Positions 1 through 35,320 of a stretch of DNA of 64,000 nt are shown in pieces; the first letter of the stretch is position 1; the number at the start of each line of letters is the position of its first letter. Under the pieces are notes generated by a model, which was not told where the DNA came from, did no database searches, and saw only the letters and a list, made by a program, of their open reading frames with translations. The stretch lies in NCBI GenBank assembly GCA_948530865.1, contig CAOTKV010000003.1, positions 41,881 to 105,880 of the forward strand. Direction: 5' to 3'. The translations under genes and the position numbers were made by a program. The stretch comes from an uncultured Clostridia bacterium (GTDB taxonomy: Bacteria > Bacillota > Clostridia > TANB77 > CAG-508).

Positions 1-972
1 TGGATTTCCTTTTATATCAAATTTTACTTTATAAATTCCTGGTACATCTTGTCCATATTCTACACTACCTTTTTTATTTGTTCTTTTTAGATGTTCTTCT
101 ATAACTTTTATTCCTGCTTCATAGGCATATGGTTTAGCATCTGCTACATTTGCTGTAGAATTTTTATTTACTCTCCAATGATATAAAATTTTAGAAATAT
201 GTACTACTTTACTCGCCTTTTCTGTAGCTCTTAAAACAAAATCAAAATCTTGTGCACCATTAAACTTTGAATTTAAAAGACCTACTTTTTTAATAAGTTC
301 TTTTTTGGCAACAACAAAATGAGTAATATAATTATTGCACTCCAATGTTTCTGGGGAAAAATCAGGTTTAAAATATGGTTCAAATCTTTCTCCATTTTCA
401 TCAATTTTATCCTCATCTGAATAAATAAAATCAACATTTTTGTTTTTATTTATACATCTTGCAACTTCAAATAAACAATCTGGAGATAATAAATCATCAT
501 GATCTAAAAATCCTATAAAATCTCCTGTTGCAAATTTTATTGCTTCATTTGTATTTTCTGAAATCCCTTTATTAGAATTTAAAAACTTATATTTTATTTT
601 TTCATTTGAGCTATAATACTGTTTTAAATTCTCATTTTTTTGAGTACTTCCATCTGTTAAAACAAGTTCCCAATTTGAATATGTTTGTTTTTCTAAAGAC
701 TCTACTAATTCTTTAAAAAATGTTTCATCTGTATTATACATAGGAACAACAACACTTATTTTTGGTTTATAATCAAATTTAAAATTTCTTTGATATTCAA
801 GTTCTCCATTTTTTGGTTCATTTTTTTCAATCCATATTTTATATTGTTCTAAATTTGATTTTCTGTTTTCCTTTATATGCAATACTCTTTTTAAGACTTT
901 TTTTAAAGTTTTTATAATTCCATATCTTCTAAAATAATATTTAACTTTATTAAAATTATTTTTTAAATTCAT
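1..972 (-). CDS. Glycosyltransferase family 2, N-terminal 324 aa only (3' end runs off the window)
   Basis: Minus-strand frame is open from the ATG at 972 to position 1. My translation is MNLKNNFNKV...ISVVVPMYNTDETFF...QTYSNWELVLTDGS...LDHDD...YHWRV...GIYKVKFDIKGNP. It is a close paralogue of the next two ORFs. It is absent from the ORF track because it is truncated. Confidence 0.8.
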   Translation of the reverse strand, partial: MNLKNNFNKVKYYFRRYGIIKTLKKVLKRVLHIKENRKSNLEQYKIWIEKNEPKNGELEYQRNFKFDYKPKISVVVPMYNTDETFFKELVESLEKQTYSNWELVLTDGSTQKNENLKQYYSSNEKIKYKFLNSNKGISENTNEAIKFATGDFIGFLDHDDLLSPDCLFEVARCINKNKNVDFIYSDEDKIDENGERFEPYFKPDFSPETLECNNYITHFVVAKKELIKKVGLLNSKFNGAQDFDFVLRATEKASKVVHISKILYHWRVNKNSTANVADAKPYAYEAGIKVIEEHLKRTNKKGSVEYGQDVPGIYKVKFDIKGNP

Positions 973-1014: not shown

Positions 1015-2955
1015 TCATTTTCTCTTTTTTCTTTTTATCTCTTCTTCACCATAATAATTAACTTTTATATTTTTCATATGATAAACTTCAGTATCTAAAC
1101 TTAAATTAACATTATAATATGGATCTCCACTATCTAAAATTTCTGGCCATCTTTGTTCAAAAGTACTCATTTCTCCTTGGAATCTTTTTATCTTTTCAGG
1201 AGTATTTTCTTGTCCTCTTGATTTTGACTCATAATGCCAAAATTCAACAAATGGATTATAAACAACTAAATATCCTTTTTCTCTAATCTTTAGACAAAAA
1301 TCAACATCATTAAATGCAACAGCAAGTTTTTCGTCCATATATCCAACTTCTTCATAAACGCTTTTCTTAGAAAATAAGCAAGCACCAGTAACAGCACTTA
1401 AATTTTCTATCATACTTTCTTTTGCAAAATATCCATGTCCTGATTTTGGTATACTTTTAAATCTATTTCCTGCAATTCCACCTATACCAACAATAATTCC
1501 TGCATGTTGTATTGTTTCATCTGGATAATAAAGTTTTGCACCAACTGCACCAACATCTTCTCTTTGACAGAAACCTATCATAAGTTCAAGCCAATTTGAT
1601 GTTATTAACTCTGTATCATTATTTAACTGAACTATATATTCTCCTTCTGAATTTTGAGTTCCAAAATTAATAATTGCAGAGTAGTTGAAACCTTTTTTCA
1701 CTTCTCTTCTATTTTTATTTGTATATTCAAGTGATGATTCTTCAGGTTTTGTTATTTCTTTTCCTGTATTATAGTTTACAACTCTTATTTTATCATTTTT
1801 TATTAATTCTTTATAATATTCAAATACTTCTTCTGTTTCACTATTATTTTCTACAACAAGAATTTCATAATTTTCATATGTTGTAAGATTTAAAACTGAA
1901 TCTATACAAACTTTCAAAATATCTTTTCCATCTTTACTTGGAATAACAATTGAAACTTTTGGATTACCTTTTACTTTATAATCAACTCTATAAATTCCTT
2001 CTATACAGCCTTGACTAACATCTCCTTCCAAACCAATTCTTTTTAAATGATCTTCAATTGCTTTTTTTCCAGCTTCAAATGCATAATTTTTAGCATTACT
2101 ATTTAATTTTGCAGTTGATTGATTATGAACTCTCCAATGATATAAAATTTTTGGAATATGTGTTATATTTTCTGGTTTTGTTATTTCAGACATTCTTAAG
2201 AAAATATCATAATCTTGTGCACCATCATAATCAGCTCTAAATCCTTTTAATTTTTCCATTAATTCTTTTTTGAATATACTAAAATGACAAATATAATTTT
2301 GACATCTTAATGTATCTGGTGCAAACTCTGGTTTAAAATAAGCATCATATCTATTATCATTTTCATCAATTTTATCTTCATCTGAATATAAAAATTCTGA
2401 ATTTGGAAATTTATTTAAAGCGTATACAACTTCATACAATGCATAATCAGATAATATATCATCATGATCTAATAAAGCAATATATTCACCTGTTGCCATC
2501 TCAATTGCTGAATTTGTATTTCCAGCAATTCCTTTATTTTCGCCTAAAAATTTATAATTTATTCTACTATCTTTTTCATAATATTTTTTTAAGTTTTCAT
2601 TTTTCTTTGGACTTCCATCAGCAAGACAAAGTTCCCAATTTGAATATGTTTGATTTATCATACAATTTATTAAATCTTTGAAAAACTTTTCTTTTGTATT
2701 ATACATAGGAACTATAACACTAATTTTAGGTTCATAATCAAATTTCCTTTTCATTTGATTTTTCAAATCTGCATCATTAGGTTCGTTATATTTTATCCAG
2801 CCACCATAATCGCCATATTGTAAATCTTTTTCTCCTTTTATAATTCTTACAATTTTTCTTATTACTGTTTTAATACATTTTTTTATTGTTTTTATAAAAC
2901 CATATTTTCCAATATAAAATTTAATTTGATTAATTCTATGTTTTATAATGTTCAT
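1015..2955 (-). CDS. Two-module GT2 glycosyltransferase (646 aa)
   Basis: First GT-A module: ISVIVPMYNTKEKFF, QTYSNWELCLADGS, LDHDD. Second module: VSIVIPSKDG..., LNNDTE. Its start abuts the stop of the upstream ORF (2955/2956). Confidence 0.85.
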   Translation of the reverse strand: MNIIKHRINQIKFYIGKYGFIKTIKKCIKTVIRKIVRIIKGEKDLQYGDYGGWIKYNEPNDADLKNQMKRKFDYEPKISVIVPMYNTKEKFFKDLINCMINQTYSNWELCLADGSPKKNENLKKYYEKDSRINYKFLGENKGIAGNTNSAIEMATGEYIALLDHDDILSDYALYEVVYALNKFPNSEFLYSDEDKIDENDNRYDAYFKPEFAPDTLRCQNYICHFSIFKKELMEKLKGFRADYDGAQDYDIFLRMSEITKPENITHIPKILYHWRVHNQSTAKLNSNAKNYAFEAGKKAIEDHLKRIGLEGDVSQGCIEGIYRVDYKVKGNPKVSIVIPSKDGKDILKVCIDSVLNLTTYENYEILVVENNSETEEVFEYYKELIKNDKIRVVNYNTGKEITKPEESSLEYTNKNRREVKKGFNYSAIINFGTQNSEGEYIVQLNNDTELITSNWLELMIGFCQREDVGAVGAKLYYPDETIQHAGIIVGIGGIAGNRFKSIPKSGHGYFAKESMIENLSAVTGACLFSKKSVYEEVGYMDEKLAVAFNDVDFCLKIREKGYLVVYNPFVEFWHYESKSRGQENTPEKIKRFQGEMSTFEQRWPEILDSGDPYYNVNLSLDTEVYHMKNIKVNYYGEEEIKRKKRK

Positions 2956-4710
2956 CTATTTTGTTCCCTCCACTTTTATTTCACACCTAGCATCTTTTAA
3001 ACTAAAATTTGTATTATAATATTCATCTTTAAAATCTTTCCATTTTTGATTAAATTTATCTATTTCTTCTTTAGAAATATTTTCTTTTTCAACTACGTAT
3101 ACAACTTCTACTGTTGAATTATATACAATTAACTTATTTAATTTTCTTACCTTTAGACATAAATCCACATATTTTAAACTACTTGTAAATTCATCTGAAA
3201 GACTGCTATACAAATTAGCATCTATCATCATACAAATACTAGATACTGCATTCATATTTTGAATAAGTTTTTCTCTTCCAAAATATCCATTTTTATTTTT
3301 ATCTAATCCTTCAAATAAATAGCTTACTCCATTTTCTGTTCCAACTACCATTCCAGCATTATGTGTTTTATTATCTTCATAATATACTCTTACTCCAACT
3401 ATACCAACATCTTCTCTTTGGCAGAATCCAAGCATTCTCTCAATCCAGTTTGGAGTTTTAATTCTGCAGTTTTCATCTAAAATAATTATATATTCACTAT
3501 TATTTATATTAGATTCTAAAATTTCATAATTTTTATAAGTTGTAATTGTTTTTATATTTTCTAAAACTTCTTTTGATTTATTATTTATTAAAATACCAAC
3601 TTTAGGAGTACCTTTTACATCATAATCTACAAGATATGTTCCTGAGTTTTTTCCATTTGCAACATGTCCACTTAAACCTATTCTTTTTAAATGATCCTCA
3701 ACAGCTTTCTTTCCAGCTTCTATTGCATATGGCTTAGCCTCTGATTCCATAGATGTAGAACCTTTATGCACTCTCCAATTATATAAAATTTTTGATATAT
3801 GAACAATCTTTTTTGCATTTTCAGACATTCTTAATATTAAATCATAATCTTGTGCGCCATCATATTTATTATTAAATCCACCAATTTTATCTAGTAATTC
3901 TTTTTTGAAAACACTATAATGGCAAATATAATTATTTGATCTTAATGTATCTGGTGCAAAATCTGGTTTAAAATGTGGTGCATATCTTGGCTCATCTATG
4001 AAATGGAATTTATCTTCATCTGAATATATAAAATCTACATTTTTATTTTCATTAATTACTTTAACAACTTCATATAATGCATCTAAGCTTAGCATATCAT
4101 CATGATCTAAAAGTGATATATATTTTCCAGTTGCTAGTTCCAATGCTTCATTAGTATTTCCTGAAATTCCTTTATTTTCACCTAAGAACTTGTATTTAAT
4201 TCTTTTATCTTTTTCACACATTTCTTTTATTTTAGTAAGTTCTTTTGGACTTCCATCTGCTAAACACAACTCCCAATTACTATATGTTTGGCAATGAACA
4301 CTATATAAAAGTTCTCTAAAGAAATCTGTATCAGTATTATATAAAGGTACTACTATACTAATTTTAGGTCTTATTCTAAATCTCTTTTTTGTCTGCATTT
4401 CTAGTTCTTTATCTGTAGGTTCATTTTCTTGAAGCCATTTTTCATAATCAGATAATTCATCCTCTTCAGCTCTCTTTAAATCCTTTTCATATTTTAAATA
4501 TTTCCTATGATCTATTCCTTTCCAATATTCTGCCGTTTCTTCATCTGTTAATTTAAAATAATTTTCAACTTTTTTTGTATAGTTTTTCTCAGTTTGTTTT
4601 TTATCATATTCAATTCTTCTTCTTCCGCCTGGTGGCATTATTCTATCTATAAATGATGTTCCACTAAATGGATTTATCATCCACCAAATAAATTTTAATA
4701 TTTTTTTCAT
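2956..4710 (-). CDS. GT2 glycosyltransferase with shortened second module (584 aa)
   Basis: The first module is intact (ISIVVPLYNTDTDFF, QTYSNWELCLADGS, LDHDD). The second module is reduced (KVGILINNKS...IIILDENC) and lacks about 60 aa compared with the 1015-2955 paralogue. Confidence 0.8.
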   Translation of the reverse strand: MKKILKFIWWMINPFSGTSFIDRIMPPGGRRRIEYDKKQTEKNYTKKVENYFKLTDEETAEYWKGIDHRKYLKYEKDLKRAEEDELSDYEKWLQENEPTDKELEMQTKKRFRIRPKISIVVPLYNTDTDFFRELLYSVHCQTYSNWELCLADGSPKELTKIKEMCEKDKRIKYKFLGENKGISGNTNEALELATGKYISLLDHDDMLSLDALYEVVKVINENKNVDFIYSDEDKFHFIDEPRYAPHFKPDFAPDTLRSNNYICHYSVFKKELLDKIGGFNNKYDGAQDYDLILRMSENAKKIVHISKILYNWRVHKGSTSMESEAKPYAIEAGKKAVEDHLKRIGLSGHVANGKNSGTYLVDYDVKGTPKVGILINNKSKEVLENIKTITTYKNYEILESNINNSEYIIILDENCRIKTPNWIERMLGFCQREDVGIVGVRVYYEDNKTHNAGMVVGTENGVSYLFEGLDKNKNGYFGREKLIQNMNAVSSICMMIDANLYSSLSDEFTSSLKYVDLCLKVRKLNKLIVYNSTVEVVYVVEKENISKEEIDKFNQKWKDFKDEYYNTNFSLKDARCEIKVEGTK

Positions 4711-4726: not shown

Positions 4727-5689
4727 CTATTTTTTAAATTTATATAGTATTTTTGTAATAAAAGGCATATTTAAAATCATAAAATTCTGCATTACATATA
4801 TGAAACTTTCATATTTATAAAGTTTAAAAAATAATCCCCATTTTCTAAAATTAAAATTTTTCTTTTTTTCTAACATTTCATAGTATTGTAAAGCTTGTCT
4901 ATTTAAAATTTTAACTTTATCATCTACAAATTTTTCTTCATTTTCAATAAATACAGAAAAATGTTCTTTTTTTACTTGTATAAATAATTTTCTTATTTCA
5001 TCTATACTTTTTAATTCATCTGTTTTCTTTTTAGAACCTACCTTATTATTTTTATGTTGTCTATATTTTATAAGTGGTTCTTCTATATACGTTATTTTGT
5101 GTTTTTGACTTAGTATTAGTGGAATCCAATAATCATGCAAAATAAATTTACTTGTATTTGGAAGCGGTAAAACTTCATCTATAAGCTCTTTTTTAGAAAG
5201 CATTGTACAACCTGTTATAAAATTATTTAGATATAAACTTTCAAAATTATTGTATTTTACTATTTTTTTATAAAATCCTTTTAATTTCCAATAAGAACTG
5301 TATGTTACATTTAAAAATGAATCTACAACTTCTAAATCTGAATAAACTAAATCACTTCCAGTTTCTTCAATAACTTTTATTGATTTTTTAATCTTATTTT
5401 CATTCCAAATATCATCTTGATCTGAAAACATAAAATATTTATTTTCGACCCTTTTTAGTAAAAATTCAAAATTTTTTACAACACCCAAATTTTTCTCTTG
5501 GCTAAAAACTATTATTCTTTTATCTTTTTCTACATATTCTTCTAAAATTTCTTTTGTTGAATCTGATGAACAATCATCAGAAATTATTAATCTAAAATTA
5601 GAATATGTTTGACACATTATGCTATCTAATTGTTCTCTTAAATATTGTTCCCCATTATATGTTGCAAGTAATATATCAACCTTTTCCAT
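4727..5689 (-). CDS. Single-module GT2 glycosyltransferase, rhamnosyltransferase-like
   Basis: 320 aa. The N-terminus VDILLATYNGEQYLREQLDSI..QTY..ISDDCSSD resembles RgpB/WbbL-type rhamnosyltransferases. This is recalled from memory, not searched. Confidence 0.7.
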   Translation of the reverse strand: MEKVDILLATYNGEQYLREQLDSIMCQTYSNFRLIISDDCSSDSTKEILEEYVEKDKRIIVFSQEKNLGVVKNFEFLLKRVENKYFMFSDQDDIWNENKIKKSIKVIEETGSDLVYSDLEVVDSFLNVTYSSYWKLKGFYKKIVKYNNFESLYLNNFITGCTMLSKKELIDEVLPLPNTSKFILHDYWIPLILSQKHKITYIEEPLIKYRQHKNNKVGSKKKTDELKSIDEIRKLFIQVKKEHFSVFIENEEKFVDDKVKILNRQALQYYEMLEKKKNFNFRKWGLFFKLYKYESFIYVMQNFMILNMPFITKILYKFKK

Positions 5690-5713: not shown

Positions 5714-7966
5714 TTATTTTCTTATAATTCCTTTTATCTTTTTGGCTAATTTCCAAATTGCTGTATTTTGAGTTTTTTCAAATCTCTCTACCAAATATTG
5801 ATGACTATCAATATATTGTTTCTGATTTTTTATTTCTTCATCTTTAATTTTAAGTATTGTTCTTAAGTCTTCTAAATCATTTTTATCTTGCATTTTTTGA
5901 ATACTTGATGTATTTATAACCTTATTTTTTATATCAGAACAATTATTATATAAATCTAAGTATTCCTCTTGCATCTTTTCAACCTTTTTAAATTGATAAT
6001 TTTTAAAATTTTCTATAATTTTATTATATTCTTTATCATTAACAACTTCTTTTATTTTGCTAATGATAACATCTGTATCTTTTGTAACTGGGATTGTCCA
6101 TCCTAATTTATCTTTTTTTAGTCTATCTCCAACAGCTCCAATATCAAATGCTAAAATTGGAATACCTGCCATATAAACTTCTGATAAAGTGTATGAATAA
6201 GTTTCTGGCCAAACTGTAAGCATACATACTAAATTTATATTGTTTTCTACTAATAAATTAGATAATTCTCCTCTATTATATTGACCATGAAAAATATAGT
6301 TTGGTGCGTTTTCAGCTAATTTTTCATCAAATGTTTTTCCAAATAAATGAATTGTTATATTGTCATCATTTTTTTTAATTAATGATTTTAAAATTTCACT
6401 TCCTTTTTGTACTGCCATAGCTCCAACAAAAGCTATATTTATATTACTATTTTCTTTTTTATCTTCTTTTTTTACATCATAAATTTCAACACCATGTTCT
6501 ATAACTTTAATATTTAAATCTTTATAAAATTTATTTACAATTTTTTGTGTATTATCAGAAGGTACTATTATTGTACTAGATTTTGAAAGGTTCTTATTAC
6601 AATTTTCTCTCCAAGAATCTATAATATCTTCTGTTATATTATATTTATCTAAAATACAATCTTTGCAGTTTTTAGAATCTTCACAATATGTACCTTTATA
6701 AACCATATTTATTGCTGGACACATTGTATATAAATCATGTAAAGTAGTAATTATGTGAGCATTATATTTTTCAGCCATTTCATAAATATCAAATGTTTGA
6801 AATAATAAATGATGTATATGTACTATATCAAAATTAAATGCTGTAAATAAACTATTTAAAAATTCTCTATATGATTGATTTGAATATCTTAAATTACTAT
6901 AAAACTTTTTATCTGTTTTTATACTATAAATTAATCTTCCAATATCTTTTGTATATAAATACACTTCCATTCTTGAAATTTCATTATAGTTTGGACAAAT
7001 AACAAAACACGCATAATTATTTTCTACTAAATTTGTTAGTACATCTTTTATATGAAGTGATGTTCCACCAGTCATCTCCATATTTTCATTCCATTCATTT
7101 ACAAAAAAAGCTATTCTTTTTTTACTAAAAAGTTTAATATTAATTCTTATATTATCATGAATATCTCTCATCATATTAGATGCCATATATTCATTTAACT
7201 TTTCTATATAAAATGGATATCTTTCTGCTAATATTTTTGTATGACTTTCAATTAATTCTTTTTTACTATTTGTTAGATTTTCTTTTTTAAAAGATTGAGT
7301 TCCTTTATGATATATAAATGTATTATCACAAATTATATTTATATACCCATGATTTAAAGCTCTATAACAGAAATCATTTTCCTCGCCATATCCTTTTCCA
7401 AATGTTTCTTCATCAAACAATCCTATTTCATTTAAAGCTTTTCTTTTTATAAATAAGCAAAAACCGTTTCCTGTTGGTATTTCTGGAAATTTATTTAATG
7501 AACATTTTTCAATTAAATTTGCATACTCTTCTAAAGTAATATTTTCTGGAATTTCATTATCTTCTCCAAAGTTTGGGACAGATGCTATTGTGCCATTATT
7601 AGTAAGTGGAGTAACTGTTGCTATATATTCATTTGAATATGCTGAATCATATATTTTTTCAAGCCATCTGCTTGTTACTTCTGTATCACTATTTAGAAGT
7701 ATTACATCATTTTCTGGAAATTCTCTCATTCCAATATTTACAGATTTTACAAATCCATAATTTTTATTATTATTAATAACCATTATATTTTTATATTCAT
7801 TTTTATACTTATTAAGCATTGGCAGGATTTTTTCATCAGGACTACAATCATTAATTAATATTAAATTATTTTCTTCTAAATTTGTATATTTAATTACAGA
7901 TTTTATACAGCTTTCAGTATATTCATAAGCATTGTATATTGGAATAATGATATTTACTTTTTTCAT
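5714..7966 (-). CDS. Bifunctional GT2 (N-terminal) plus GT4 (C-terminal) glycosyltransferase with C-terminal coiled-coil tail
   Basis: 750 aa. GT2 motifs: VNIIIPIYNAYEY, LNSDTE. GT-B/GT4 motifs: IAFVGAMAVQKG, WPETYSYTLSEVYMAGIP. The last ~100 aa are heptad-rich (KNDLEDLRTILKIKDEEIKNQKQYID). It is a paralogue of 12656-14983. Confidence 0.8.
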   Translation of the reverse strand: MKKVNIIIPIYNAYEYTESCIKSVIKYTNLEENNLILINDCSPDEKILPMLNKYKNEYKNIMVINNNKNYGFVKSVNIGMREFPENDVILLNSDTEVTSRWLEKIYDSAYSNEYIATVTPLTNNGTIASVPNFGEDNEIPENITLEEYANLIEKCSLNKFPEIPTGNGFCLFIKRKALNEIGLFDEETFGKGYGEENDFCYRALNHGYINIICDNTFIYHKGTQSFKKENLTNSKKELIESHTKILAERYPFYIEKLNEYMASNMMRDIHDNIRINIKLFSKKRIAFFVNEWNENMEMTGGTSLHIKDVLTNLVENNYACFVICPNYNEISRMEVYLYTKDIGRLIYSIKTDKKFYSNLRYSNQSYREFLNSLFTAFNFDIVHIHHLLFQTFDIYEMAEKYNAHIITTLHDLYTMCPAINMVYKGTYCEDSKNCKDCILDKYNITEDIIDSWRENCNKNLSKSSTIIVPSDNTQKIVNKFYKDLNIKVIEHGVEIYDVKKEDKKENSNINIAFVGAMAVQKGSEILKSLIKKNDDNITIHLFGKTFDEKLAENAPNYIFHGQYNRGELSNLLVENNINLVCMLTVWPETYSYTLSEVYMAGIPILAFDIGAVGDRLKKDKLGWTIPVTKDTDVIISKIKEVVNDKEYNKIIENFKNYQFKKVEKMQEEYLDLYNNCSDIKNKVINTSSIQKMQDKNDLEDLRTILKIKDEEIKNQKQYIDSHQYLVERFEKTQNTAIWKLAKKIKGIIRK

Positions 7967-7975
7967 TAAATTCTC

Positions 7976-9718
7976 CTATAATAATTTTTTATTAAGTCCT
8001 TTTAATATTTTGAAAAATCTCTTATTTTCAAAATCATCTATTAAAGCATCTTTTTGTTTTATATCTTCTTCTAATTCTTTTTGTTTTTGAAGTAGCTGTT
8101 CTATTTCATTTGTTTTTTCTTGAAGATTGCTTTTTATCTCTTCAATATAATTTTCTTTTTTAGTATTTTCAGCTTTATATAAACCTAATTCTTCTCTACA
8201 TTTATCAAGTTCTAATATATGCTTTGATATTTCTTCTCTTGCTTCTAAAAGCTTATTATTATAATATTCAAATTTACCTTTTGGTTTATATAATTTCATT
8301 ATTTGATTATCTATTACATAATCTTGAAATTCTTGCTCTATTTGCTTAAAATATTCAATATATTGTGAAATTTTTAATTTTCTAAACATTTCATCTATAT
8401 TTATTTTATTTGAAATTTCTGAATTATATATATACATATTATTTATAGAACGATAAATAATAAACTCTAATGGTAAGTTTTCCAAACACCATTCTTGATC
8501 AAAAAATACAAATTTTCCATCTATATAAAATGTATTTTCAAAGACTAAATCTAGATAAAGTTTTTTCACATAAAATAATTCTTCGTTTTCTTTAACTCTT
8601 TGATTTTTTAATTTATCTTTTATTTCTTCATACCATTTATTTATAAGTTCTAATGCAGATTCAATATTTCCACTCATTATCTCATCTACCAATACTTGAT
8701 TAAATGGATTACTATTAATGTATTTTGAATAAATAGTTTCATTTTCTTTAAATTCATCTATAACTTCAAATCCTAAGTTTCTTAGTTCTTGCGCATTATT
8801 TTTTATATTATATATATGTTTTTTTGATTCTGGTAATATAGATTCTTTAATTACATAATCTTCATAAATTTTTGTACATAATCTAAAATCAACTTTTCTA
8901 GCATTATTAAATCCAATAAATTTTTCTGTTGATTTTGGATTTATTTCAACTATATATGAATTAGTAAAATACTTGAATAATCCCTCTTTTGTTGCATATT
9001 TTAATAATTTGAGTTCATCAATCCCAGATTCATCTTCATTATTTACAATTGAATTATTCATTATTTTTGTATTGTTATATTTAGGAATATATTTATCTGA
9101 AAATATAACATTTGCATTATAATAGTTTGGTAGTGGATAAAATATTCTATAATTTTTACCAACTAATTTATTTTCTATTTCTGCATGTGTAAATGTATTT
9201 TCTCTTTGTTTTTCTAAGTTTGAAACTCCAAATTTATTGTTTAAAAATAATAATATAGTTCCATTTTCATTTAAGAATTTTTGAACTTTTTCTAAATATT
9301 CTAAATTATCTTTTATTATAATATAATCAAACTTTTCTTCTAATTCTATTTCATCAAAATTATTTGCAGATATAACTATAATGTTTTCCTTATCTTTATA
9401 TCTTATTGAAATTGCTTCTGCCTTATATTTATTTGATTCTATACACACAAGCTTTTTCACCTTAGAAGAAATACTACCAGTAATCTCTCCAAAACCTGCA
9501 TTTAATTCTAATACTTTAGAATCTTTTTCAAAATTATACCAATTAATACAATTTGCTCTATTGCTTAATAAGCTTTGAATCTTTTCATATTCATCACTAT
9601 CTTTTAAATATTTTTCATATTCATTTGCATCATATTTTTTGATATAATTTTCAACTATATCTTCTTCTAGAATACTTCTAAAATTATTACTTTCATACTT
9701 ATCTAAAATTGTTTTCAA
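7976..9718 (-). CDS. Methyltransferase / kinase-like / coiled-coil protein (WbdD-like architecture), putative chain terminator
   Basis: 580 aa with no TM segment. SAM motif I is VLELNAGFGEITG. A kinase-like catalytic loop YLDLVFEN (D-x4-N) is followed by FFDQEW. The C-terminal ~85 aa is a heptad-rich K/E/Q segment. Confidence 0.6.
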   Translation of the reverse strand: MKTILDKYESNNFRSILEEDIVENYIKKYDANEYEKYLKDSDEYEKIQSLLSNRANCINWYNFEKDSKVLELNAGFGEITGSISSKVKKLVCIESNKYKAEAISIRYKDKENIIVISANNFDEIELEEKFDYIIIKDNLEYLEKVQKFLNENGTILLFLNNKFGVSNLEKQRENTFTHAEIENKLVGKNYRIFYPLPNYYNANVIFSDKYIPKYNNTKIMNNSIVNNEDESGIDELKLLKYATKEGLFKYFTNSYIVEINPKSTEKFIGFNNARKVDFRLCTKIYEDYVIKESILPESKKHIYNIKNNAQELRNLGFEVIDEFKENETIYSKYINSNPFNQVLVDEIMSGNIESALELINKWYEEIKDKLKNQRVKENEELFYVKKLYLDLVFENTFYIDGKFVFFDQEWCLENLPLEFIIYRSINNMYIYNSEISNKINIDEMFRKLKISQYIEYFKQIEQEFQDYVIDNQIMKLYKPKGKFEYYNNKLLEAREEISKHILELDKCREELGLYKAENTKKENYIEEIKSNLQEKTNEIEQLLQKQKELEEDIKQKDALIDDFENKRFFKILKGLNKKLL

Positions 9719-9738
9719 ATTTTATCTCCTTTACAAAG

Positions 9739-10527
9739 TTACCAAATCTCTAAGGCACTTTTACTATTTTCTTCTGTATCTTCATTTTCAGCTATTTTAG
9801 GTTTTACTTCTTTTTCTATTTTTTGCCTTATTTCGTTTTTAGTTTCTTTTCCACCATTAAACAAAATTGCTTCTACATCAAATTGATCTTTATCATTTTC
9901 TAAAAATATATTGGCATTTTTTTCATCAACACCATTAAACAAAATTACATTTTTAAATGTATTATCTATTTTTAAAATCGCTCTTTGATCTGATAATTCG
10001 TTACTATTTGTATCATTAATTTCAAGAGGTGTTATATAAAAATTATCAAAATAGTATTCTGCTCTTCTTCCCATTTCAGTAGTTTGCTCTCTATATTTTC
10101 CAAGTGTTATAGTTTCTATATTAGTTTTCATTTTTTCTTTTTCTTGCTCACTTAAATTTAATTTATTAAACCACTCATCTTTATAATTTAAATTATGCAA
10201 AATATTATTTATTTGAATTTCTGAATTTTCATTTTTAATTATTTCAGATAAAGCCCCTATTCTATCTGATTCTGGTGATGTTGTTATCCACGCTGTAACT
10301 AAATTATTATGTTCTTTTATTATTTCTTTTAAATTATCAACATTATTACTATCTCCGCCATCTACTATAATTAGATTATTTTGTATTGTTGTTATCACAT
10401 AACCATTTTTTCCTAATACAGTAACATTTATTTTATTATTATATCTTGTTTTCATTCCTAAGTATGTACATAAGCAAATTACTACTATTATAAGGAATGT
10501 AATAAATACTTTCTTTTTTCTACTCAT
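9739..10527 (-). CDS. Membrane-anchored protein with a degenerate metallo-beta-lactamase-like fold
   Basis: 262 aa with an N-terminal TM (VFITFLIIVVICLCTYL). LIIVDGGDS...AWITTSPESDRIGAL aligns by eye to the MBL/ComEC motif ILIDGG...THPHxDHIGG, but the His ligands are replaced. Confidence 0.4.
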   Translation of the reverse strand: MSRKKKVFITFLIIVVICLCTYLGMKTRYNNKINVTVLGKNGYVITTIQNNLIIVDGGDSNNVDNLKEIIKEHNNLVTAWITTSPESDRIGALSEIIKNENSEIQINNILHNLNYKDEWFNKLNLSEQEKEKMKTNIETITLGKYREQTTEMGRRAEYYFDNFYITPLEINDTNSNELSDQRAILKIDNTFKNVILFNGVDEKNANIFLENDKDQFDVEAILFNGGKETKNEIRQKIEKEVKPKIAENEDTEENSKSALEIW

Positions 10528-10539
10528 ACTTTATCCTTT

Positions 10540-11841
10540 CTAATTTTTAGAAAATTTCTTTATTGAAATATTTGAATTTAATCTTATAATTCCTACTGCA
10601 TTTTTAGTTGTAATAACATCTATTAATAAAGCATCATATTTTCTATTTAAAACTTCAAGTTCACCTTGCAAATTGTATTTTGTGCAACTAAAAGATAATG
10701 TATATTTTCCTGCTGTAAGTGGTATTTTTTGTCTAAATTCTACTACTACAATATCTCCTTTTTTATAATCTCCAGTTAACACTTTTTCAATATCTGTATT
10801 TGTTCCAGCAAGAGTTGTACCTTGAAAATCTTTTACTGTCATTGTAAATATAGGGTCACTAACATCTTGATTGAATTTTATTTTTGATTTCATTATTACT
10901 TCATCATTATTATCAAAAGCATTTATTGGTCTGTTTTTTACATCAAACATACCATAATCTATTACTTCTGCACGTTTGTCTCCATATTCTGTGATATTAG
11001 GATTTTGAACAAAGTTATGTTTCCAATCATCTAAATTCTCCTCACTTGAAGATACTACTGAAGTAATATTTTCTTCTTCTTTTTCTTCTTGTGTTTCATC
11101 ATCTGCAATTCCAACCATTATTTTTTTGTACTTTTCAACACCATCTTTTATATCACCATCATATATCTTTTTACCTTGTTCTAAAATAATTGCTCTTGTA
11201 CAATTTTTTAAAATGTCACCAACACTATGACTTACAAAAAGAATTGTTTTTCCTTCTTTTTTAAATTGTTCAAACTTTTTAAAACATTTTAATTGAAATG
11301 CCATATCTCCAACTGATAAAACTTCATCTACTATTAAAATATCTGGTTCAACATTTATTGCACAAGCAAATGCTAGTCTTGCAAACATACCTGAAGAATA
11401 AGTTTTTACAGGTTGGTATAAGTGATCACCTATATCTGCAAAATCAATTATTTCTTGTTTCTTTTCTTCAATTCTTTCATTTGACAATCCCATTACTTGT
11501 CCATGTTGATAGATGTTTTCAAGACCTGTTAAGTCTGGATTGAAAGCTGCTCCAAGTTCAAGTAGTGAACTTACTTTTCCATTTATACTAATTTCTCCAC
11601 TTGAAGGAATAACAACACCTGTAACAATTTTTAGCAAAGTAGATTTTCCTGCACCATTTTTACCTAAAATACCAACTACTTCACCTTTTTTTATTTCTAA
11701 ATTTAATCCGTCTAAAGCTTTAAACGTGCTATGTTTTTTTATTTTAGTAGGAAACATTGCTTCTACTAATCTATCTTTTTTATTAGCAAACATTTTATAT
11801 TCTTTAGATAAATTATTAATTTTTATCATTGTTTCGCTCAT
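10540..11841 (-). CDS. Polysaccharide ABC transporter ATP-binding protein (Wzt/TagH-type) with extra C-terminal domain
   Basis: 433 aa. Walker A GKNGAGKST, signature YSSGM, Walker B ILIVDE. An acidic linker leads to a ~160-aa C-terminal domain (EYGDKRAEVIDYGMFD...GKYTLSFS) resembling Wzt_C. Confidence 0.85.
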   Translation of the reverse strand: MSETMIKINNLSKEYKMFANKKDRLVEAMFPTKIKKHSTFKALDGLNLEIKKGEVVGILGKNGAGKSTLLKIVTGVVIPSSGEISINGKVSSLLELGAAFNPDLTGLENIYQHGQVMGLSNERIEEKKQEIIDFADIGDHLYQPVKTYSSGMFARLAFACAINVEPDILIVDEVLSVGDMAFQLKCFKKFEQFKKEGKTILFVSHSVGDILKNCTRAIILEQGKKIYDGDIKDGVEKYKKIMVGIADDETQEEKEEENITSVVSSSEENLDDWKHNFVQNPNITEYGDKRAEVIDYGMFDVKNRPINAFDNNDEVIMKSKIKFNQDVSDPIFTMTVKDFQGTTLAGTNTDIEKVLTGDYKKGDIVVVEFRQKIPLTAGKYTLSFSCTKYNLQGELEVLNRKYDALLIDVITTKNAVGIIRLNSNISIKKFSKN

Positions 11842-11855
11842 AATCTACTCCCTTT

Positions 11856-12644
11856 TTATAATACATCTGCAAAATCTTTTTTGTTCTTTTTAAATACAGA
11901 ATTTCCCCATACAAACATCAATATTGTAACTACCCAGAATATTATTGTGAACAAAAAGTTATGTTCTGTTATAATAGTTGAACTTGCAATAAATGCTTGT
12001 CTAAATCCTTCTACTAAATATGTGAATGGAAATGCTTTAAATATACTAGAAAGCCATCCATCAAGCATAGTTAAATTCCATATTATTGGTGTAAACCACA
12101 TACAAAGTTGTATAAGAATATTTAGTAAATTTGCAAAATCTGGAACAACTGTTGTAAGTGCTGAAGTAAATCTTGTTAAAGCAATAATAAAACATAATGC
12201 ACAAAAGATTATATAAATTATATTTAAAATGTTTGGGAAATATCCAAAAACAGTTGCTGCCATAGTAGCTATAAATACTAAAAATACGCCAATACAACTT
12301 GAAGATATTATTGATATTATTGGGATAATATCTACTGGAAATACAACTTTTTTTACTAAATAACTATAATTTCTTATTGAATTACTTGCCATTAAAATTG
12401 CATCACTTATAAACATCCACATACTCATTCCTGGTAAAAACCACACAACATATGGATATTTACCTGAACTTCCTGTTTTTAATATATATTGAAATACAAT
12501 TACATATGTAAGCATAAACACAAATGGTTGTGCAAATCCCCATAAGCTTCCTAAACTTGTACTTGCAAATTTATTTCTAAAATCATTTTTTCCAAGTTGA
12601 AATGCTAATTTTCTATTATTATATAATGTTTTAAAAAATTCCAT
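11856..12644 (-). CDS. ABC-2 type polysaccharide export permease (Wzm/TagG-type)
   Basis: 262 aa with about 6 hydrophobic helices. It lies directly upstream of the ATPase, in the typical wzm-wzt order. Confidence 0.85.
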   Translation of the reverse strand: MEFFKTLYNNRKLAFQLGKNDFRNKFASTSLGSLWGFAQPFVFMLTYVIVFQYILKTGSSGKYPYVVWFLPGMSMWMFISDAILMASNSIRNYSYLVKKVVFPVDIIPIISIISSSCIGVFLVFIATMAATVFGYFPNILNIIYIIFCALCFIIALTRFTSALTTVVPDFANLLNILIQLCMWFTPIIWNLTMLDGWLSSIFKAFPFTYLVEGFRQAFIASSTIITEHNFLFTIIFWVVTILMFVWGNSVFKKNKKDFADVL

Positions 12645-12655
12645 TTTTCCTCCAA

Positions 12656-14983
12656 TTAAAGTTTTATGAATTTTATTTTTTCTAGTAATTTTATTCTTTT
12701 TGATGATAATATTTTATTATATTTTTCTTCATCTTTCATCATATTACCAATTCTTTTGTTTAATCTATCAATTTCTTCTCTTAGCAATTTGACTGTTGTA
12801 TCATATTCAACAATTCTTTGGTTATGGCTTGCTCTTTCTATGTTTAATTGATTAATTAAATCAGAATTGTCTACTGTTACTTTTTTTTCTGGTACTACTT
12901 TTAATATTTCTTTTAATAAATCTTTATTTAAGCTTTCAAAATTTGATTTATTTGAAATTAATTTATTATAAATTTCTTTATATTCATTTGCATTTTCAGA
13001 AACTGATTTTAAGTTATTCAAATAATTATTTACGCTTTCAAAAACTTCATCATATTCTTTTTTATTTTCAAAAATTTCATTTATTTTATTAATTATTTCT
13101 TCTACTGATGAATCTTTTTTTATTATCCAACCTAAATTATCTTTTTGAACTCTTTCACTAACAGCTCCATAATCTAAAGCAATTACTGGTACTTTAGCAG
13201 TTATAGCTTCTGTAAGTGTATAAGAATATGTTTCATGCCAAATTGAAAGCATACATACTAAATCTATATTATTTTCTTCTAATAGTTTTGTAATATCTTC
13301 TCTATTATATAAACCATGATATATATAGTTTCTTGAAGATTTATTTAAAGTGCATTCTGATGTTGTTCCAAACATATGAACATTAAATTTTAATTCATCA
13401 AAATTTGCTTTTTTTACAAATTCACTTAAAATATCTACACCTTTTTGTTTATTTATTCCACCAATAAAAGCTATATTTTTCTTATCATGTTTTTCTTTAT
13501 CTCTTTTTGATTCTTTGTAATCTACACCATGTTCTACTACTTGTATTTCTATATCTTTATAATATTTGTTAAAAATCTCTTTTGTAGAATTAGATGGTGC
13601 AACTAAAAGTTTTGCTTTTCTTAGTGCATTATATACATTATTTCTCCATTTTTCAATAATATTACCATCTACATCAATCAATTCTTTTAAACATTCACTA
13701 CAATTACATTCTTTATTATCTACACAACATTTTTCATTTTTTTCAAGTAATACAATTGATGGACATACCATATAAAAATCATGTAATGTCATCATAAATG
13801 GAATTTTCTTTTCTTCTAAAACATCAAATAAATCAAAATAATGATTTTTTAAATGATGAACATGTACTAAATCAACATCAACAATTGAAAATATTTTTTC
13901 AATTAATTTTTTATAATCATTATTAAATAAATTAATATTTTCAAATGAATTTATTTTTCCTAAAAATACTTCTGAAATTGAATCTTCAAAAAATGATTTT
14001 AATTTATAACCACACTCACTATAATAACAAACATGAATATTTAATTCTTCTCTTAAATTATCTATTAAATCATATATGTGAAGTGCAGTTCCACCAACTA
14101 ACTTATTATCTCTTGAAACAAAATCATGTACAAATATTAAAATATTTTTTCTATGTTTATTATTTATATAATATTTAATATTATCTTGTATATATTTGAA
14201 TGGATTTGTATTTACTATTAAATTAGTTTGAGCAAAATTTGTAGGATATTTTTCTTCTAATATTTTTAAATGTGAATTAACAAGTTCAAGTTTTTTTTCT
14301 GTAAAAGACTGAGTACCTTTATGATAGATAAATGTATTATCACACATTAAATGAACAAAGCCTTTTTTTACACATCTATATGAAAAATCATTTTCTTCTC
14401 CATATCCTTTTTCAAAAGTATCATCATCAAAAAGTCCTACTTCATTTATAGCATTTCTTCTAATATACATACAAAAACCATGTGCTGTTGATATTTCTGG
14501 AAAATCATTAAAACTACATTTTTCAATTTCATCTGCATACTCTTCTAAAGATATAAAACTTGGTAAATTATTTTCCTCTAAAAAATTAGGAATTGATGCA
14601 AGAGTTGCATTATTAGAAAGTGGTGTTACACTTGCTACATTTTCTCTTGAATATGCAACTTCACTTAATTTTTCGATCCAATTTTTTGTTACTTCTGTAT
14701 CGCTATTTAATAAAATAACATCATTATCAGAATAGCTCATACCTCTATTTACTGTTTTTACAAATCCTGAGTTTTCTTCATTTTCTAACACTATAATATT
14801 TAGTTCTCTATTTTTCTCTTTAACATCATTTAATAATGGCATAATTTTTTTATCTGGACTCTTGTCATTTATTAATACTAAATTATGTTCCTTTAAATTT
14901 GTGTTTTCAATAATTGTTTCTATACATTTTTTAGTAAAATCATACGCATTATATATTGGTATTATTATATCTAATTTCTTCAT
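12656..14983 (-). CDS. Bifunctional GT2 plus GT4 glycosyltransferase with C-terminal coiled-coil tail
   Basis: The track ORF extends to 15007. The ATG at 14983 (MKKLDIIIPIYNAYDF) has the SD AAGGGG 7 nt upstream and avoids overlap with the upstream ORF. GT2 motif LNSDTE; GT4 motifs IAFIGGINKQKG and WHETYSYTLTEAITAKVP. The tail is NQRIVEYDTTVKLLREEIDRLNKRIGNMMKDEEKYNK. Confidence 0.8.
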   Translation of the reverse strand: MKKLDIIIPIYNAYDFTKKCIETIIENTNLKEHNLVLINDKSPDKKIMPLLNDVKEKNRELNIIVLENEENSGFVKTVNRGMSYSDNDVILLNSDTEVTKNWIEKLSEVAYSRENVASVTPLSNNATLASIPNFLEENNLPSFISLEEYADEIEKCSFNDFPEISTAHGFCMYIRRNAINEVGLFDDDTFEKGYGEENDFSYRCVKKGFVHLMCDNTFIYHKGTQSFTEKKLELVNSHLKILEEKYPTNFAQTNLIVNTNPFKYIQDNIKYYINNKHRKNILIFVHDFVSRDNKLVGGTALHIYDLIDNLREELNIHVCYYSECGYKLKSFFEDSISEVFLGKINSFENINLFNNDYKKLIEKIFSIVDVDLVHVHHLKNHYFDLFDVLEEKKIPFMMTLHDFYMVCPSIVLLEKNEKCCVDNKECNCSECLKELIDVDGNIIEKWRNNVYNALRKAKLLVAPSNSTKEIFNKYYKDIEIQVVEHGVDYKESKRDKEKHDKKNIAFIGGINKQKGVDILSEFVKKANFDELKFNVHMFGTTSECTLNKSSRNYIYHGLYNREDITKLLEENNIDLVCMLSIWHETYSYTLTEAITAKVPVIALDYGAVSERVQKDNLGWIIKKDSSVEEIINKINEIFENKKEYDEVFESVNNYLNNLKSVSENANEYKEIYNKLISNKSNFESLNKDLLKEILKVVPEKKVTVDNSDLINQLNIERASHNQRIVEYDTTVKLLREEIDRLNKRIGNMMKDEEKYNKILSSKRIKLLEKIKFIKL

Positions 14984-14984
14984 T

Positions 14985-16391
14985 TTAGTTCCCCTTATTT
15001 TCTTCAACTTTTTCTTTTAAAAATATTGGTTTTAATAAAACTGTTGATGTTACAACTTGTATCATTATTACTCTTGTATAATATCTGATAAATGATGCAG
15101 CAAATATTGCTTCACCTCCAAATACAAATATATAACATAATATTAAAAATGCAATATTAACAAGAATAGCTCCTAGTGCAATTACAACATACAATTTATC
15201 TTTTTTATCTAATTTATAATAAGTTATAAACATTGAGCCACTTATTATTCCCATTAATAAAACTACTGCATTATCTTTATAAAATTGAATTGTTATATTT
15301 TGCATTAAAGACAAAAAATATTCTAAATGCATTTCTACTTTTGAACCTGCACCAAATAATAATTCTGTTGGAAAATGTGCTAAGTTATTATAAATTTTCC
15401 AACTAATAGGTACTATTAGTATAGTAATAATATAAATTATTACTGATTTTGCTTTTAATTTTTCTATATTTAATTTTTTATAAAATATTGCAATAATAAT
15501 TAACACAAAAATATTATAAGCAACTAAAAATGTTCCATCTTGTTTGCACCAACATGCACCAATTGTATTTACCATAGAAATTATCATATTTTCAATTTTT
15601 CTATCATATATAATCCATTCAATAAAATATAATATTCCACAAGTATATAAAACCATAAATGGAACATCACCATATGTTGAACTTGCATAACATCCAAAAT
15701 TATAACAATATTCATATACTATAAGTATAAGCAAAAGTGCTACATTAATATTTGCTTTTCTTTTTTTGCATAAGCCCATAATATTTAATAGATTAATTAT
15801 TAAAAATATTCCCGAAAAAATTCTTATAAAATTTTCTTTTATACCATCTATTAATACATAAAAACCTGAATATAATAGTGGTAATCCATTCGGATAATTT
15901 TCTAATCCTGTATTTATAAAGAAATCCATTTTCTTTCCAATAAATATATTCTTTGCATTTAATGCCCATACTGAAAATTCATCTATAAATACTAATTTAT
16001 TTGAAACAGCAACTCCTATAAAATATACAATATACACTATATTTGCACATAATAAAATTGCTGTTACTGCTTTTCTTAATTTACTTGTTTCAATCTTTTC
16101 TTTTTCTTGTTTTTTAGGTTTATTTTTTATAAAATAATAAATTCCATATACTATATTAAATATTAATCCAGCTACAATTGGAATAAAAATATATCTTTCA
16201 TATTTAATTCCAATTAAGCCTATTAAATACATATACAATGTAAATATTATTATTCCACTTGTTAATACTATTGATACTACCTCTATTTTTAATAAATTTT
16301 TAATTTGAAATAAACTTAATTTATTAAGCAAAATTATAAAATTTATTCCAATAGATATTAATAATATCAGATATATTGCTAACATTATCAT
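14985..16391 (-). CDS. Polytopic membrane protein, possible GT-C fold glycosyltransferase or polymer-modifying enzyme
   Basis: 468 aa with at least 10 hydrophobic segments. The loop motif FIDEFSVWALNAK is reminiscent of the acidic first-loop motif of GT-C enzymes. No firm family assignment. Confidence 0.4.
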   Translation of the reverse strand: MIMLAIYLILLISIGINFIILLNKLSLFQIKNLLKIEVVSIVLTSGIIIFTLYMYLIGLIGIKYERYIFIPIVAGLIFNIVYGIYYFIKNKPKKQEKEKIETSKLRKAVTAILLCANIVYIVYFIGVAVSNKLVFIDEFSVWALNAKNIFIGKKMDFFINTGLENYPNGLPLLYSGFYVLIDGIKENFIRIFSGIFLIINLLNIMGLCKKRKANINVALLLILIVYEYCYNFGCYASSTYGDVPFMVLYTCGILYFIEWIIYDRKIENMIISMVNTIGACWCKQDGTFLVAYNIFVLIIIAIFYKKLNIEKLKAKSVIIYIITILIVPISWKIYNNLAHFPTELLFGAGSKVEMHLEYFLSLMQNITIQFYKDNAVVLLMGIISGSMFITYYKLDKKDKLYVVIALGAILVNIAFLILCYIFVFGGEAIFAASFIRYYTRVIMIQVVTSTVLLKPIFLKEKVEENKGN

Positions 16392-34591: not shown

Positions 34592-34602
34592 ATTTATTCT
34601 CC

Positions 34603-35187
34603 TTATTTTAAATTCTTAAATAAATCTGTTTTCTTTAATTCTTCTAAAGTTGGCCAAAGTCCATCTTTTTCAGAAGTTAAATAATCTTCAGGTTTCATTC
34701 CTGGAACTTCTGGCCATACAATTCCAATTTCTGGATCATTCCATTTTAATCCACCTTCTGCACTATGATTATATACATCATCACATTTATAACTAAATTC
34801 TGCTTCATCTGATAATACTAAAAATCCATGTGCAAATCCTCTTGGTATCATAAACATTTTTTTATTTTCTTCAGAAAGAATAACGCCTTCCCATTTACCA
34901 TATGTTTTACTTCCTGGTCTTAAATCAACTGCAACGTCAAATACTTCACCTTTTATACATCTAACAAGTTTGGCTTGAGTATTTTCTTTTTGGAAATGTA
35001 GCCCTCTTAAAACTCCTTTTTTTGATTTTGATTGGTTATCTTGTACAAATTCATTTGTAATTCCAATTTCAGCAAAATCTGGTTTACTATATGTTTCCAT
35101 AAAGTAACCTCTGTTATCTCCAAAAACTGTTGGTTCAATTACATAAACACCATCAATTGAAGTATCTATTCTTTTAAATTTTCCCAT
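34603..35187 (-). CDS. rfbC: dTDP-4-dehydrorhamnose 3,5-epimerase
   Basis: The track ORF starts at a TTG at 35205. The ATG at 35187 (MGKFKRIDT) has the SD AAGGAAG upstream. FGDNRGYFMETY and LRGLHFQ are RmlC motifs. Confidence 0.9.
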   Translation of the reverse strand: MGKFKRIDTSIDGVYVIEPTVFGDNRGYFMETYSKPDFAEIGITNEFVQDNQSKSKKGVLRGLHFQKENTQAKLVRCIKGEVFDVAVDLRPGSKTYGKWEGVILSEENKKMFMIPRGFAHGFLVLSDEAEFSYKCDDVYNHSAEGGLKWNDPEIGIVWPEVPGMKPEDYLTSEKDGLWPTLEELKKTDLFKNLK

Positions 35188-35290: not shown

Positions 35291-35320
35291 TTGAATTTTA
35301 ATATTTCATTTGGACATACA

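Follow-up and report, generated by a model that had tools for sequence, protein, structure and literature searches.

A candidate O7-type chain terminator beside a Wzm/Wzt glycan exporter in an uncultured Clostridia bacterium

The locus considered here lies at positions 5714-15007 of a 64,000-nucleotide stretch of DNA (hereafter the window; assembly GCA_948530865.1, contig CAOTKV010000003.1, positions 41,881 to 105,880) from an uncultured gut Clostridia bacterium, and encodes an ATP-binding cassette (ABC) exporter of the Wzm/Wzt type, a 580-amino-acid (aa) protein with a methyltransferase and a kinase-like domain, a protein of the metallo-beta-lactamase (MBL) type and two tailed glycosyltransferases (GT). 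By sequence comparison, the 580-aa protein is a member of the Klebsiella pneumoniae O7 ORF6-N methyltransferase-kinase terminator family. With a probability of about 0.7, the locus is read as a Clostridial member of the O7-type pathway, in which an ABC transporter gated by the cap exports a rhamnose-rich surface glycan. This reading draws on observed domain folds, catalytic residues, homology (of the terminator, the carbohydrate-binding module (CBM) of Wzt and the polymerase modules) and conserved synteny. The minus-strand gene order and coordinates of the locus, which had been laid out in an earlier note on this DNA, agree with the list of open reading frames (ORFs) and their domains.

Kinship and architecture of the 580-aa protein

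In K. pneumoniae O7, ORF6 combines a methyltransferase, an unannotated AmiN/APH-like kinase, an immunoglobulin (Ig)-like module, a coiled coil and a pair of rhamnosyltransferase modules of the GT2 type; the enzyme caps a rhamnose-containing chain with methyl-phosphate on the terminal rhamnose, as characterised biochemically, and the mutants D441A and G91A/G93A have been made (PMC11231755). Orthologs are found in several phyla, some running on into GT modules and some stopping after the coiled coil (PMC11231755). For comparison, five O7-type ortholog sequences were rebuilt from the supplementary alignment of the same paper, and two intact ones were taken from annotated plasmids, namely a stand-alone protein of 649 aa from Citrobacter braakii pF217-3 and a fusion of 1457 aa from Pseudomonas asturiensis pCC1524. 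Alignment of the 580-aa protein with the O7 ORF6-N family by hhalign gives a probability of 99.8% (E=1.1e-29, 412 columns) and pairs residues 44-477 with residues 61-547 of the C. braakii protein, that is, the methyltransferase and the entire kinase-like domain. Furthermore, BLASTP against K. pneumoniae O7 ORF6-N yields E=2e-13, and a profile of the Clostridia family finds the five rebuilt orthologs at E=1e-12 to 1e-24 (Z=1e6). Comparison by hhalign with the rebuilt sequences, which are truncated and derived from optical character recognition, was weak (probability 23%, E=9e-4), and a plain hidden Markov model (HMM) of the kinase domain found no match among the Gram-negative orthologs; only profile-profile comparison with full-length sequences succeeded. 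Motifs common to both sides comprise NxxG-KYFAG, P-L-P-D/N-Y-K, A/T-N-S-F/Y-L, YLD-x4-N and F-D/E-x-E-W. D390 (in YLDLVFEN) aligns with the catalytic-loop Asp of F/Y-I/L-D-A-x-P-x-N (DAxPxN), which is D441 in ORF6, and the metal-binding Asp motif reads FFDQEW in the window and YFEREW in C. braakii. By analogy with ORF6, the 580-aa protein would add methyl-phosphate and control chain length.

An AlphaFold2 model of the protein, for which an alignment of 50 homologs served as input, reached a predicted local distance difference test (pLDDT) score of 89.7 and a predicted TM-score (pTM) of 0.80. It consists of a Rossmann methyltransferase (pLDDT >90), an alpha/beta domain at about residues 235-477 and an unbroken helix at 482-578, which begins 5 residues past the kinase domain and leaves two residues to the end of the protein. 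A profile of the 580-aa family matches solved methyltransferases at E=1e-7, and a Foldseek search with the whole model returns methyltransferases and WbdD at the top. Searched alone, the kinase-like domain retrieves, at E<=1e-3, Rio1/Bud32 (PRPK) kinases, APH(2'') and the capreomycin and macrolide phosphotransferases, the remainder of the 50 matches listed being other kinases of the same fold. K291, D390, N395 and D407 are invariant in 51 of the 51 aligned family sequences that were used for all residue counts. In the model, K291 sits in strand 3 (288-293), D390 and N395 follow strand 6 (383-388) and D407 follows strands 396-405; as placed there, K291, D390-x4-N395 and D407 form the canonical kinase catalytic set. 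The methyltransferase and kinase-like folds that the earlier note had claimed are thus present in the model and in the Foldseek matches. At the level of sequence, Pfam and NCBIfam scans detected no kinase family in the protein and only weak methyltransferase hits, and searches against solved structures with the protein, the family profile and the kinase-domain profile returned generic methyltransferases, with neither WbdD nor a kinase among them.

The coiled coil claimed for the same protein also holds: its tail is a single 97-residue helix in the model, with z=3.8 on a home-made heptad score tested against 200 shuffles. The C-terminal end is amphipathic (hydrophobic moment, muH, 0.58) and carries a net charge of +6.

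The proposal of a WbdD-like cap module stands in part. The protein has the domain order of WbdD from Escherichia coli O9a and K. pneumoniae O3 (methyltransferase, kinase, coiled coil, membrane-binding C-terminus), and the spacing of N395 and D407 is 12 residues as against 13 for N356 and D369 in WbdD (PMC3482155). The WbdD structures 4azs, 4azt, 4ax8, 4uw0 and 4azw match the model at Foldseek E ~3e-8 to 1e-7 over 450-570 columns and are the only solved bacterial glycan enzymes that do so across both catalytic domains. Their TM-scores are low (~0.2), and therefore the domains are arranged differently. Sequence relation to WbdD is lacking, since no match at E<=10 was obtained with the protein or the profiles, although WbdD chains were present in the PDB set searched. 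In both systems a Wzt CBM is involved, gating export in that of WbdD; they differ in that WbdD caps polymannose, whereas the window system is linked to rhamnose, and in that the polymerase WbdA is a GT4-GT4 protein without a tail of its own.

The exporter and its conserved neighbourhood

The additional C-terminal domain that the earlier note had ascribed to the ATPase is confirmed as Wzt_C, with PF14524 matched over the whole profile (118 bits). The computable outcomes set beforehand as refuting that note, such as the want of a Wzt_C-like fold or of the kinase and methyltransferase folds, were examined and none was found. In outline, the scheme of that note is upheld. The nearest solved structure to Wzt is Aquifex Wzt (8dku, E=9e-71), over the nucleotide-binding domain only. 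Over its full length, CBM included, Wzt is 35-36% identical to the Wzt proteins encoded beside the O7-type terminators of C. braakii and P. asturiensis. By analogy with these systems, the Wzt_C module would bind the capped non-reducing end.

The family of the 580-aa protein was searched in species-representative genomes, and 80 related loci were drawn for comparison from at least 285 confirmed matches in genome assemblies (numbers such as L001 denote these loci). All 80 come from uncultured Bacillota, labelled almost throughout as Clostridia or Clostridium, and the closest 580-aa homolog among them is 87% identical (a mouse-gut metagenome-assembled genome). In most of the loci the 580-aa homolog lies downstream of Wzm and a full-length Wzt on the same strand, and it often adjoins Wzt directly or is parted from it by no more than an MBL-like gene, one single GT2 or a paralog with the methyltransferase only. 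The Wzm homologs are 58-100% identical and adjoin Wzt. A tandem-GT2 homolog usually stands 3' of the terminator, again in most loci. GT2-GT4 proteins occur in about half of the 80 loci, and relatives with more than 45% identity in about a quarter. Most terminator-family proteins are unnamed in the sources searched, the few named ones being called methyltransferase, glycosyltransferase or hypothetical protein. A profile of the kinase-like domain finds 2,679 clusters at 50% identity, the best 150 of which include fusions of 1,150-1,490 aa; cluster look-ups for these long proteins returned almost no names.

The same order is met with in the O7-type relatives: on C. braakii pF217-3, as in the window, rml genes, Wzm, Wzt with its CBM, the terminator (WP_326979343.1) and glycosyltransferases occur together. 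That cluster (L081, 85189-104526) is complete and lies on a conjugative MOBF plasmid beside an IS630 transposase; the module therefore moves horizontally.

Such linkage bears on another explanation, in which the 580-aa protein would decorate internal residues or a primer instead of capping the chain, Wzt_C would bind the backbone and the helix would merely tether or oligomerise the enzyme. Several polysaccharides do bear internal phosphate or methyl groups, the glycan of this bacterium is known from genes alone, and the function of Wzt_C is read from its family assignment alone. The close and recurrent linkage of the 580-aa protein to Wzt-CBM in the 80 loci, its homology to a biochemically proven terminator, and its succession of head, long helix and basic end, which is the domain order of known rulers, make internal decoration very improbable. 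A teichoic-acid exporter was also considered and rejected, as the TagH models scored far under their cutoffs and the window hits included no gene of CDP-glycerol or CDP-ribitol type.

Between Wzt and the terminator, the window carries the MBL-like gene, for which the earlier note had proposed a membrane-anchored product. The anchor and the family homology are upheld, and the positive-inside N-terminus indicates that the domain probably faces outward (extracytoplasmic). By iterative searching, homologs (39 ORFs) were located in 37 of the 80 loci, mostly in the same position. Most orthologs possess THPHxDH and pass the Pfam Lactamase_B model (e.g., L062:9079-9978 and L046:8926-9837), the canonical members scoring 46 bits. 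The window copy and its closest relatives have TTSPESDR at the HxHxDH metal-binding site instead, and the NCBIfam match in the window reaches only 22 bits; therefore, the metal ligands are lost and the copy is degenerate.

Glycosyltransferases, their tails and a shared C-terminal tag

The earlier note had taken the two GT2-GT4 proteins (termed A and B here) as twin polymerases, a role that the comparison does not bear out. The commonest glycosyltransferase beside the terminator in the 80 loci is the tandem GT2 (90 ORFs); the GT2-GT4 types account for about 40, of which half show no more than 24-31% identity. Moreover, the P. asturiensis terminator fusion has a GT2-GT2 part (residues 891-1443) with which tandem-GT2 'a' of the window shares 41% identity over 581 aa (E=3e-148) and tandem-GT2 'b' 30% over 557 aa. 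Tandem-GT2 'a' also matches the beginning of the 766-1140 module of O7 ORF6, at 33% identity (E=7e-26). Since they resemble modules that are fused to the terminator in Pseudomonas, the tandem GT2s are the best candidates and, judged from sequence, are likely to be the polymerases in place of the GT2-GT4 twins. L001 and L002 also have a further tandem GT2 at the position of the third such gene of the window. The single GT2 is kept in nearly all loci (98 homologous ORFs in the 80), often beside Wzm/Wzt. A and B are 44% identical over their full length, and GT2-GT4 'A' could be a polymerase, an adaptor or a side-chain enzyme. Its ORF is extensible to a TTG at 15007, the ATG at 14983 agreeing with the start of its paralog. 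The architecture of GT2-GT4 plus tail is very common, with >4,800 matches of about 730-800 aa.

Heptad-rich tails had been claimed for both GT2-GT4 proteins. For A the home-made score supports the claim: its tail of about 120 aa comprises a proline break at about residue 706, a heptad-rich part at about 729-776 (z=4-5 by comparison with shuffles) and, at the C-terminus, the basic SSKRIKLLEKIKFIKL, which is not alpha-amphipathic (muH 0.05). For B it is weak: the tail of about 95 aa is helical and ends in AIWKLAKKIKGIIRK, its heptad score is low (z=1.1 in a 28-residue window), and its 3.5-residue hydrophobic periodicity beats 200 of 200 shuffles. Tails of 82-138 aa are kept by 117 GT2-GT4 homologs, among which the C-terminal motif of tail A is conserved.

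The ends of tail B (muH 0.62 for the tag itself) and of the terminator, both strongly amphipathic basic helices with a moment of about 0.6 and a charge of +6, share a C-terminal tag of the pattern [W/F/Y]-[K/R]-[I/L/V]-[T/A]-x-[P/K]-[L/I/F]-[R/K], for example SKSWKITKPLR and AIWKLAKKIK. Within the last 35 residues, the tag is found in 35 of 90 terminator-family ORFs and 10 of 19 B-type GT2-GT4 ORFs, as against 5 of 1025 unassigned ORFs, none of 444 ORFs of other assigned families and a background rate of 3e-4 per 35 residues. The five unassigned ORFs are all of about 410 aa and lie between Wzt and the terminator (L030:7679-8926, L034:8718-9938, L041:7688-8920, L058:2146-3378 and L074:5119-6351); they belong to no Pfam family, have a coiled-coil-like tail before the tag and may be another kind of chain-end enzyme.

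The sharing of the tag argues for a common anchoring or docking function; it would fit one membrane or docking site as well as a hetero-coiled coil, and it does not demonstrate the latter. A hetero-coiled coil is the core of the explanation put forward earlier, in which the GT2-GT4 twins would be polymerases and their tails would assemble with that of the terminator into a three-partner hetero-coiled coil that sets chain length. It can draw on the conserved helical tails of both proteins (82-138 aa), the strong heptads of tail A, the tag common to tail B and the terminator family, and the flanking of Wzm-Wzt-terminator by the twins, which recurs in L001 and L002 and, with the B copy truncated or split, in L012 and L016. 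Nevertheless, this assembly is unlikely, considering the weak heptads of tail B, the end of tail A that is not amphipathic, the prevalence of tandem GT2s beside the terminator and their fusion to it in Gram-negative relatives, and the equal fit of the tag to a common membrane or docking site. Co-variation of terminator and GT2-GT4 tail lengths across the loci was uninformative because the B-type proteins barely vary (740-756 aa). A more speculative thought, to be held as quite doubtful, is that the tag would act as a docking code drawing enzymes with stalks of different lengths to one exporter site, and that the MBL-fold protein would be an extracytoplasmic esterase that trims a phosphodiester cap after export, the window copy being its inactive remnant. 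The Gram-negative models include no extracytoplasmic hydrolase partner, and an uncapping step is not known in this pathway.

Proposed pathway, genomic setting and significance

In the O7-type reading preferred here, the chain would be assembled in the cytoplasm on a polyprenol carrier, most likely by the tandem-GT2 enzymes of rhamnosyltransferase type; adaptor, co-polymerase or side-chain roles would fall to the single GT2 and the two GT2-GT4 enzymes. The 580-aa protein would then halt growth at the non-reducing end, its kinase-like domain phosphorylating the terminal sugar and its methyltransferase methylating the phosphate; this chemistry is carried over from the homologous O7 ORF6-N, for which it has been shown biochemically. 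The catalytic head would be placed at the far end of the ~97-residue helix (~14 nm if it forms a coiled coil), which the basic amphipathic C-terminus would tether. As the helix would hold the head away from the tether, only chains above a minimum length could reach the head, so that the helix would act as a molecular ruler, a role suggested by WbdD and WbbB. Wzt_C would bind the capped end, and Wzm/Wzt would then export finished chains only. Outside the membrane, the Wzy_C-type ligase would hand the chain over to an acceptor, either a protein or the wall, in the manner of WsaB from Geobacillus. It is by analogy that we infer the methyl-phosphate chemistry, the role of the helix as a ruler, the ligand of the CBM and the final acceptor.

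Several points weigh against this pathway. Every related locus derives from metagenome-assembled genomes, and the structure of the glycan is known neither for the source bacterium nor for any close relative. The ruler function and oligomeric state of the 580-aa protein, as well as the ligand of the Wzt CBM, are inferred only. The fold matches of the kinase domain have modest TM-scores (0.3-0.55). The 580-aa protein lacks the Ig-like module found after the kinase in O7 ORF6, and its model likewise has no C-terminal fused GT2 modules; neither feature is universal in the family, as earlier work already describes stand-alone orthologs that stop behind the coil (PMC11231755). Finally, the loop binding S-adenosylmethionine (SAM) is atypical: in LELNAGFGE the equivalent of G93 is kept, and the first glycine (the equivalent of G91) is replaced by Asn at a loosely conserved position (glycine in 35 of 51 sequences).

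As this loop is relaxed (N-A-G-F-G in the window) while the kinase residues are invariant, the cap could consist of phosphate alone, with an active kinase and a weak or inactive fused methyltransferase; methylation would be left elsewhere to the methyltransferase-only coiled-coil paralogs, which many related loci add. These paralogs of 320-430 aa directly precede the methyltransferase-kinase gene (L003:8995-9951, L021:5943-6776, L048:10001-10891, L061:7424-8371 and others), and most have a long tail past the methyltransferase, many ending in the C-terminal tag. A plain-phosphate cap is nonetheless improbable, given that the methyltransferase retains its whole fold (pLDDT >90), two of its three loop glycines and the acidic residue that comes after strand 2 (E94, present in 39 of 51), that the ORF list of the window operon includes no methyltransferase-only paralog, and that the homologous O7 enzyme yields methyl-phosphate (PMC11231755).

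The export and termination core at 5714-15007, with intergenic gaps of 9-24 nucleotides, is part of a larger co-directional cluster extending from about 1 to at least 37 kb (Table 1). Nearly all genes of the window, whose G+C content is about 25%, lie on the minus strand, and no transcription-terminator-like site was found on this coding strand across 1-19999. The rml operon, placed by the earlier note beside the glycan line, does belong to the same cluster and lies about 19 kb upstream, not adjacent to it. Downstream of the core are the single GT2 and three tandem-GT2 genes, the last of which is cut by the window start; therefore, the cluster reaches beyond the window. Upstream follow the polytopic membrane protein, an acyltransferase_3 gene, GalE, DUF6077, the Wzy_C ligase-type protein, a GT4, an amino-dideoxy sugar block and rmlDACB.

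Table 1. Features of the glycan cluster in the window (window positions; residue numbers refer to the encoded proteins)
Feature	Position	Strand	Details
Third tandem-GT2 gene, 5' part	1..972	-	N-terminal basic helix, PKISVVVPMYNT and YSDEDK motifs; cut by window start
Tandem-GT2 'a'	1015..2955	-	646 aa, two GT2 domains; best polymerase (rhamnosyltransferase) candidate
Tandem-GT2 'b'	2956..4710	-	584 aa; PF00535 at 118-276, second half divergent
Single-domain GT2	4727..5689	-	320 aa; PF00535 104.6 bits
GT2-GT4 bifunctional glycosyltransferase 'B'	5714..7966	-	Pfam GT2 6-181, GT4/GT1 300-653
Chain-terminator candidate	7976..9718	-	580 aa; methyltransferase, kinase-like domain, coiled coil, basic amphipathic C-terminus
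C-terminal long helix / coiled coil	7985..8275	-	Residues 482-578; ends in amphipathic basic NKRFFKILKGLNKKLL
Protein-kinase-like domain	8288..9016	-	Residues ~235-477; K291, D390-x4-N395, D407-Q-E-W; domain model pLDDT 86.8
SAM-methyltransferase Rossmann domain	9098..9541	-	Residues ~60-207; motif I LELNAGFGE
Membrane-anchored MBL-fold protein	9739..10527	-	262 aa; N-terminus MSRKKK plus hydrophobic helix
Wzt	10540..11841	-	ABC_tran 81 bits; PF14524 Wzt_C
Wzt_C carbohydrate-binding module	10579..10992	-	Wzt residues 284-421; PF14524 E=3.8e-34, 118.2 bits (cutoff 30.4), profile positions 3-143 of 143
Wzm, ABC-2 permease of glycan exporter	11856..12644	-	PF01061 ABC2_membrane 59.5 bits
GT2-GT4 bifunctional glycosyltransferase 'A'	12656..14983	-	Pfam GT2 14-190, GT4/GT1 304-653
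Polytopic membrane protein	14985-16391		468 aa; matches no family; stop overlaps start of GT2-GT4 'A' gene
Wzy_C-type ligase	21324-22676		Same cluster
rmlD-rmlA-rmlC-rmlB	33620..37112	-	dTDP-L-rhamnose supply; Pfam RmlD_sub_bind 297, NTP_transferase 239, dTDP_sugar_isom 248, GDP_Man_Dehyd/Epimerase 300 bits

Some of these surroundings deserve mention in their own right. The 468-aa membrane protein may be a GT-C-type or other extracytoplasmic modifying enzyme. The block at 25107-33524 encodes a small phosphoglycosyl transferase, a PglF/PseB-type dehydratase, a LegC-type aminotransferase, a radical-SAM/SPASM protein, an ATP-grasp protein and a FemAB-like acyltransferase, a combination that points to an amino-dideoxy sugar of an unusual, acylated kind at the reducing end. 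The DUF6077 protein and an unannotated 250-aa protein (19511-21319) co-occur in L002, L015, L018, L031, L032, L038 and L051, where the pair adjoins Wzm or an A-type GT2-GT4 gene. A promoter scan of the AT-rich DNA gave 172 sites, compared with 179 in shuffles, i.e., chance level; with promoter-like matches overall at that level, the best one on the coding strand (17997-18025, TTGAAA-17-TATAAT with an upstream TG, in the 523-nucleotide gap that precedes the acyltransferase gene) may lie where the operon holding 5714-15007 begins.

The closest of the known systems are those of O7 and C. braakii, with which the window shares the homologous methyltransferase and kinase, the catalytic Asp (D441/D390), the coiled coil after the head, the gene order, the homologous Wzt CBM and tandem GT2, and a rhamnose-based polymer as the presumptive substrate. 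The host of the window is Gram-positive and therefore, unlike O7, has no lipopolysaccharide. Terminator and tandem GT2 are not fused, which agrees with C. braakii and differs from O7 itself; no Ig-like module parts kinase and coil as it does in O7, and the window adds tailed GT2-GT4 proteins and, between Wzt and the terminator, the MBL-fold gene. The S-layer line of Geobacillus stearothermophilus NRS 2004/3a (Wzm/Wzt, WsaE, WsaB), compared here by description only, is likewise a Gram-positive, ABC-dependent poly-rhamnan system with rml genes and a Wzy_C-type transferase in the cluster and a methyl-type cap proposed to gate export (PMC2943079); it differs in that WsaE is a methyltransferase fused to two rhamnosyltransferase domains without a kinase, and the cap is 2-O-methyl. 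In K. pneumoniae O12, WbbB also has terminator and polymerase modules split by a coiled-coil ruler and works with CBM-gated export (PMC11231755), although its terminator is a Kdo transferase and all modules form a single polypeptide. In PMC11231755 and PMC11127046, the capping and CBM-gated strategy is described as widespread across bacteria. The strategy of the window is thus a known one, and its variant features are the tailed GT2-GT4 enzymes, the shared terminal tag and the MBL-fold neighbour.

The present reading would mean that the O7-type methyl-phosphate terminator and an exporter gated by a CBM occur in a large, uncultured group of gut Clostridia, and it would provide a concrete functional label for genes that are largely unnamed. 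The shared tag and the conserved MBL-fold neighbour serve as leads on how such an assembly line may be organised in Gram-positive cells. Furthermore, the reading predicts a capped, length-controlled rhamnan on gut Clostridia, which could matter for host recognition.

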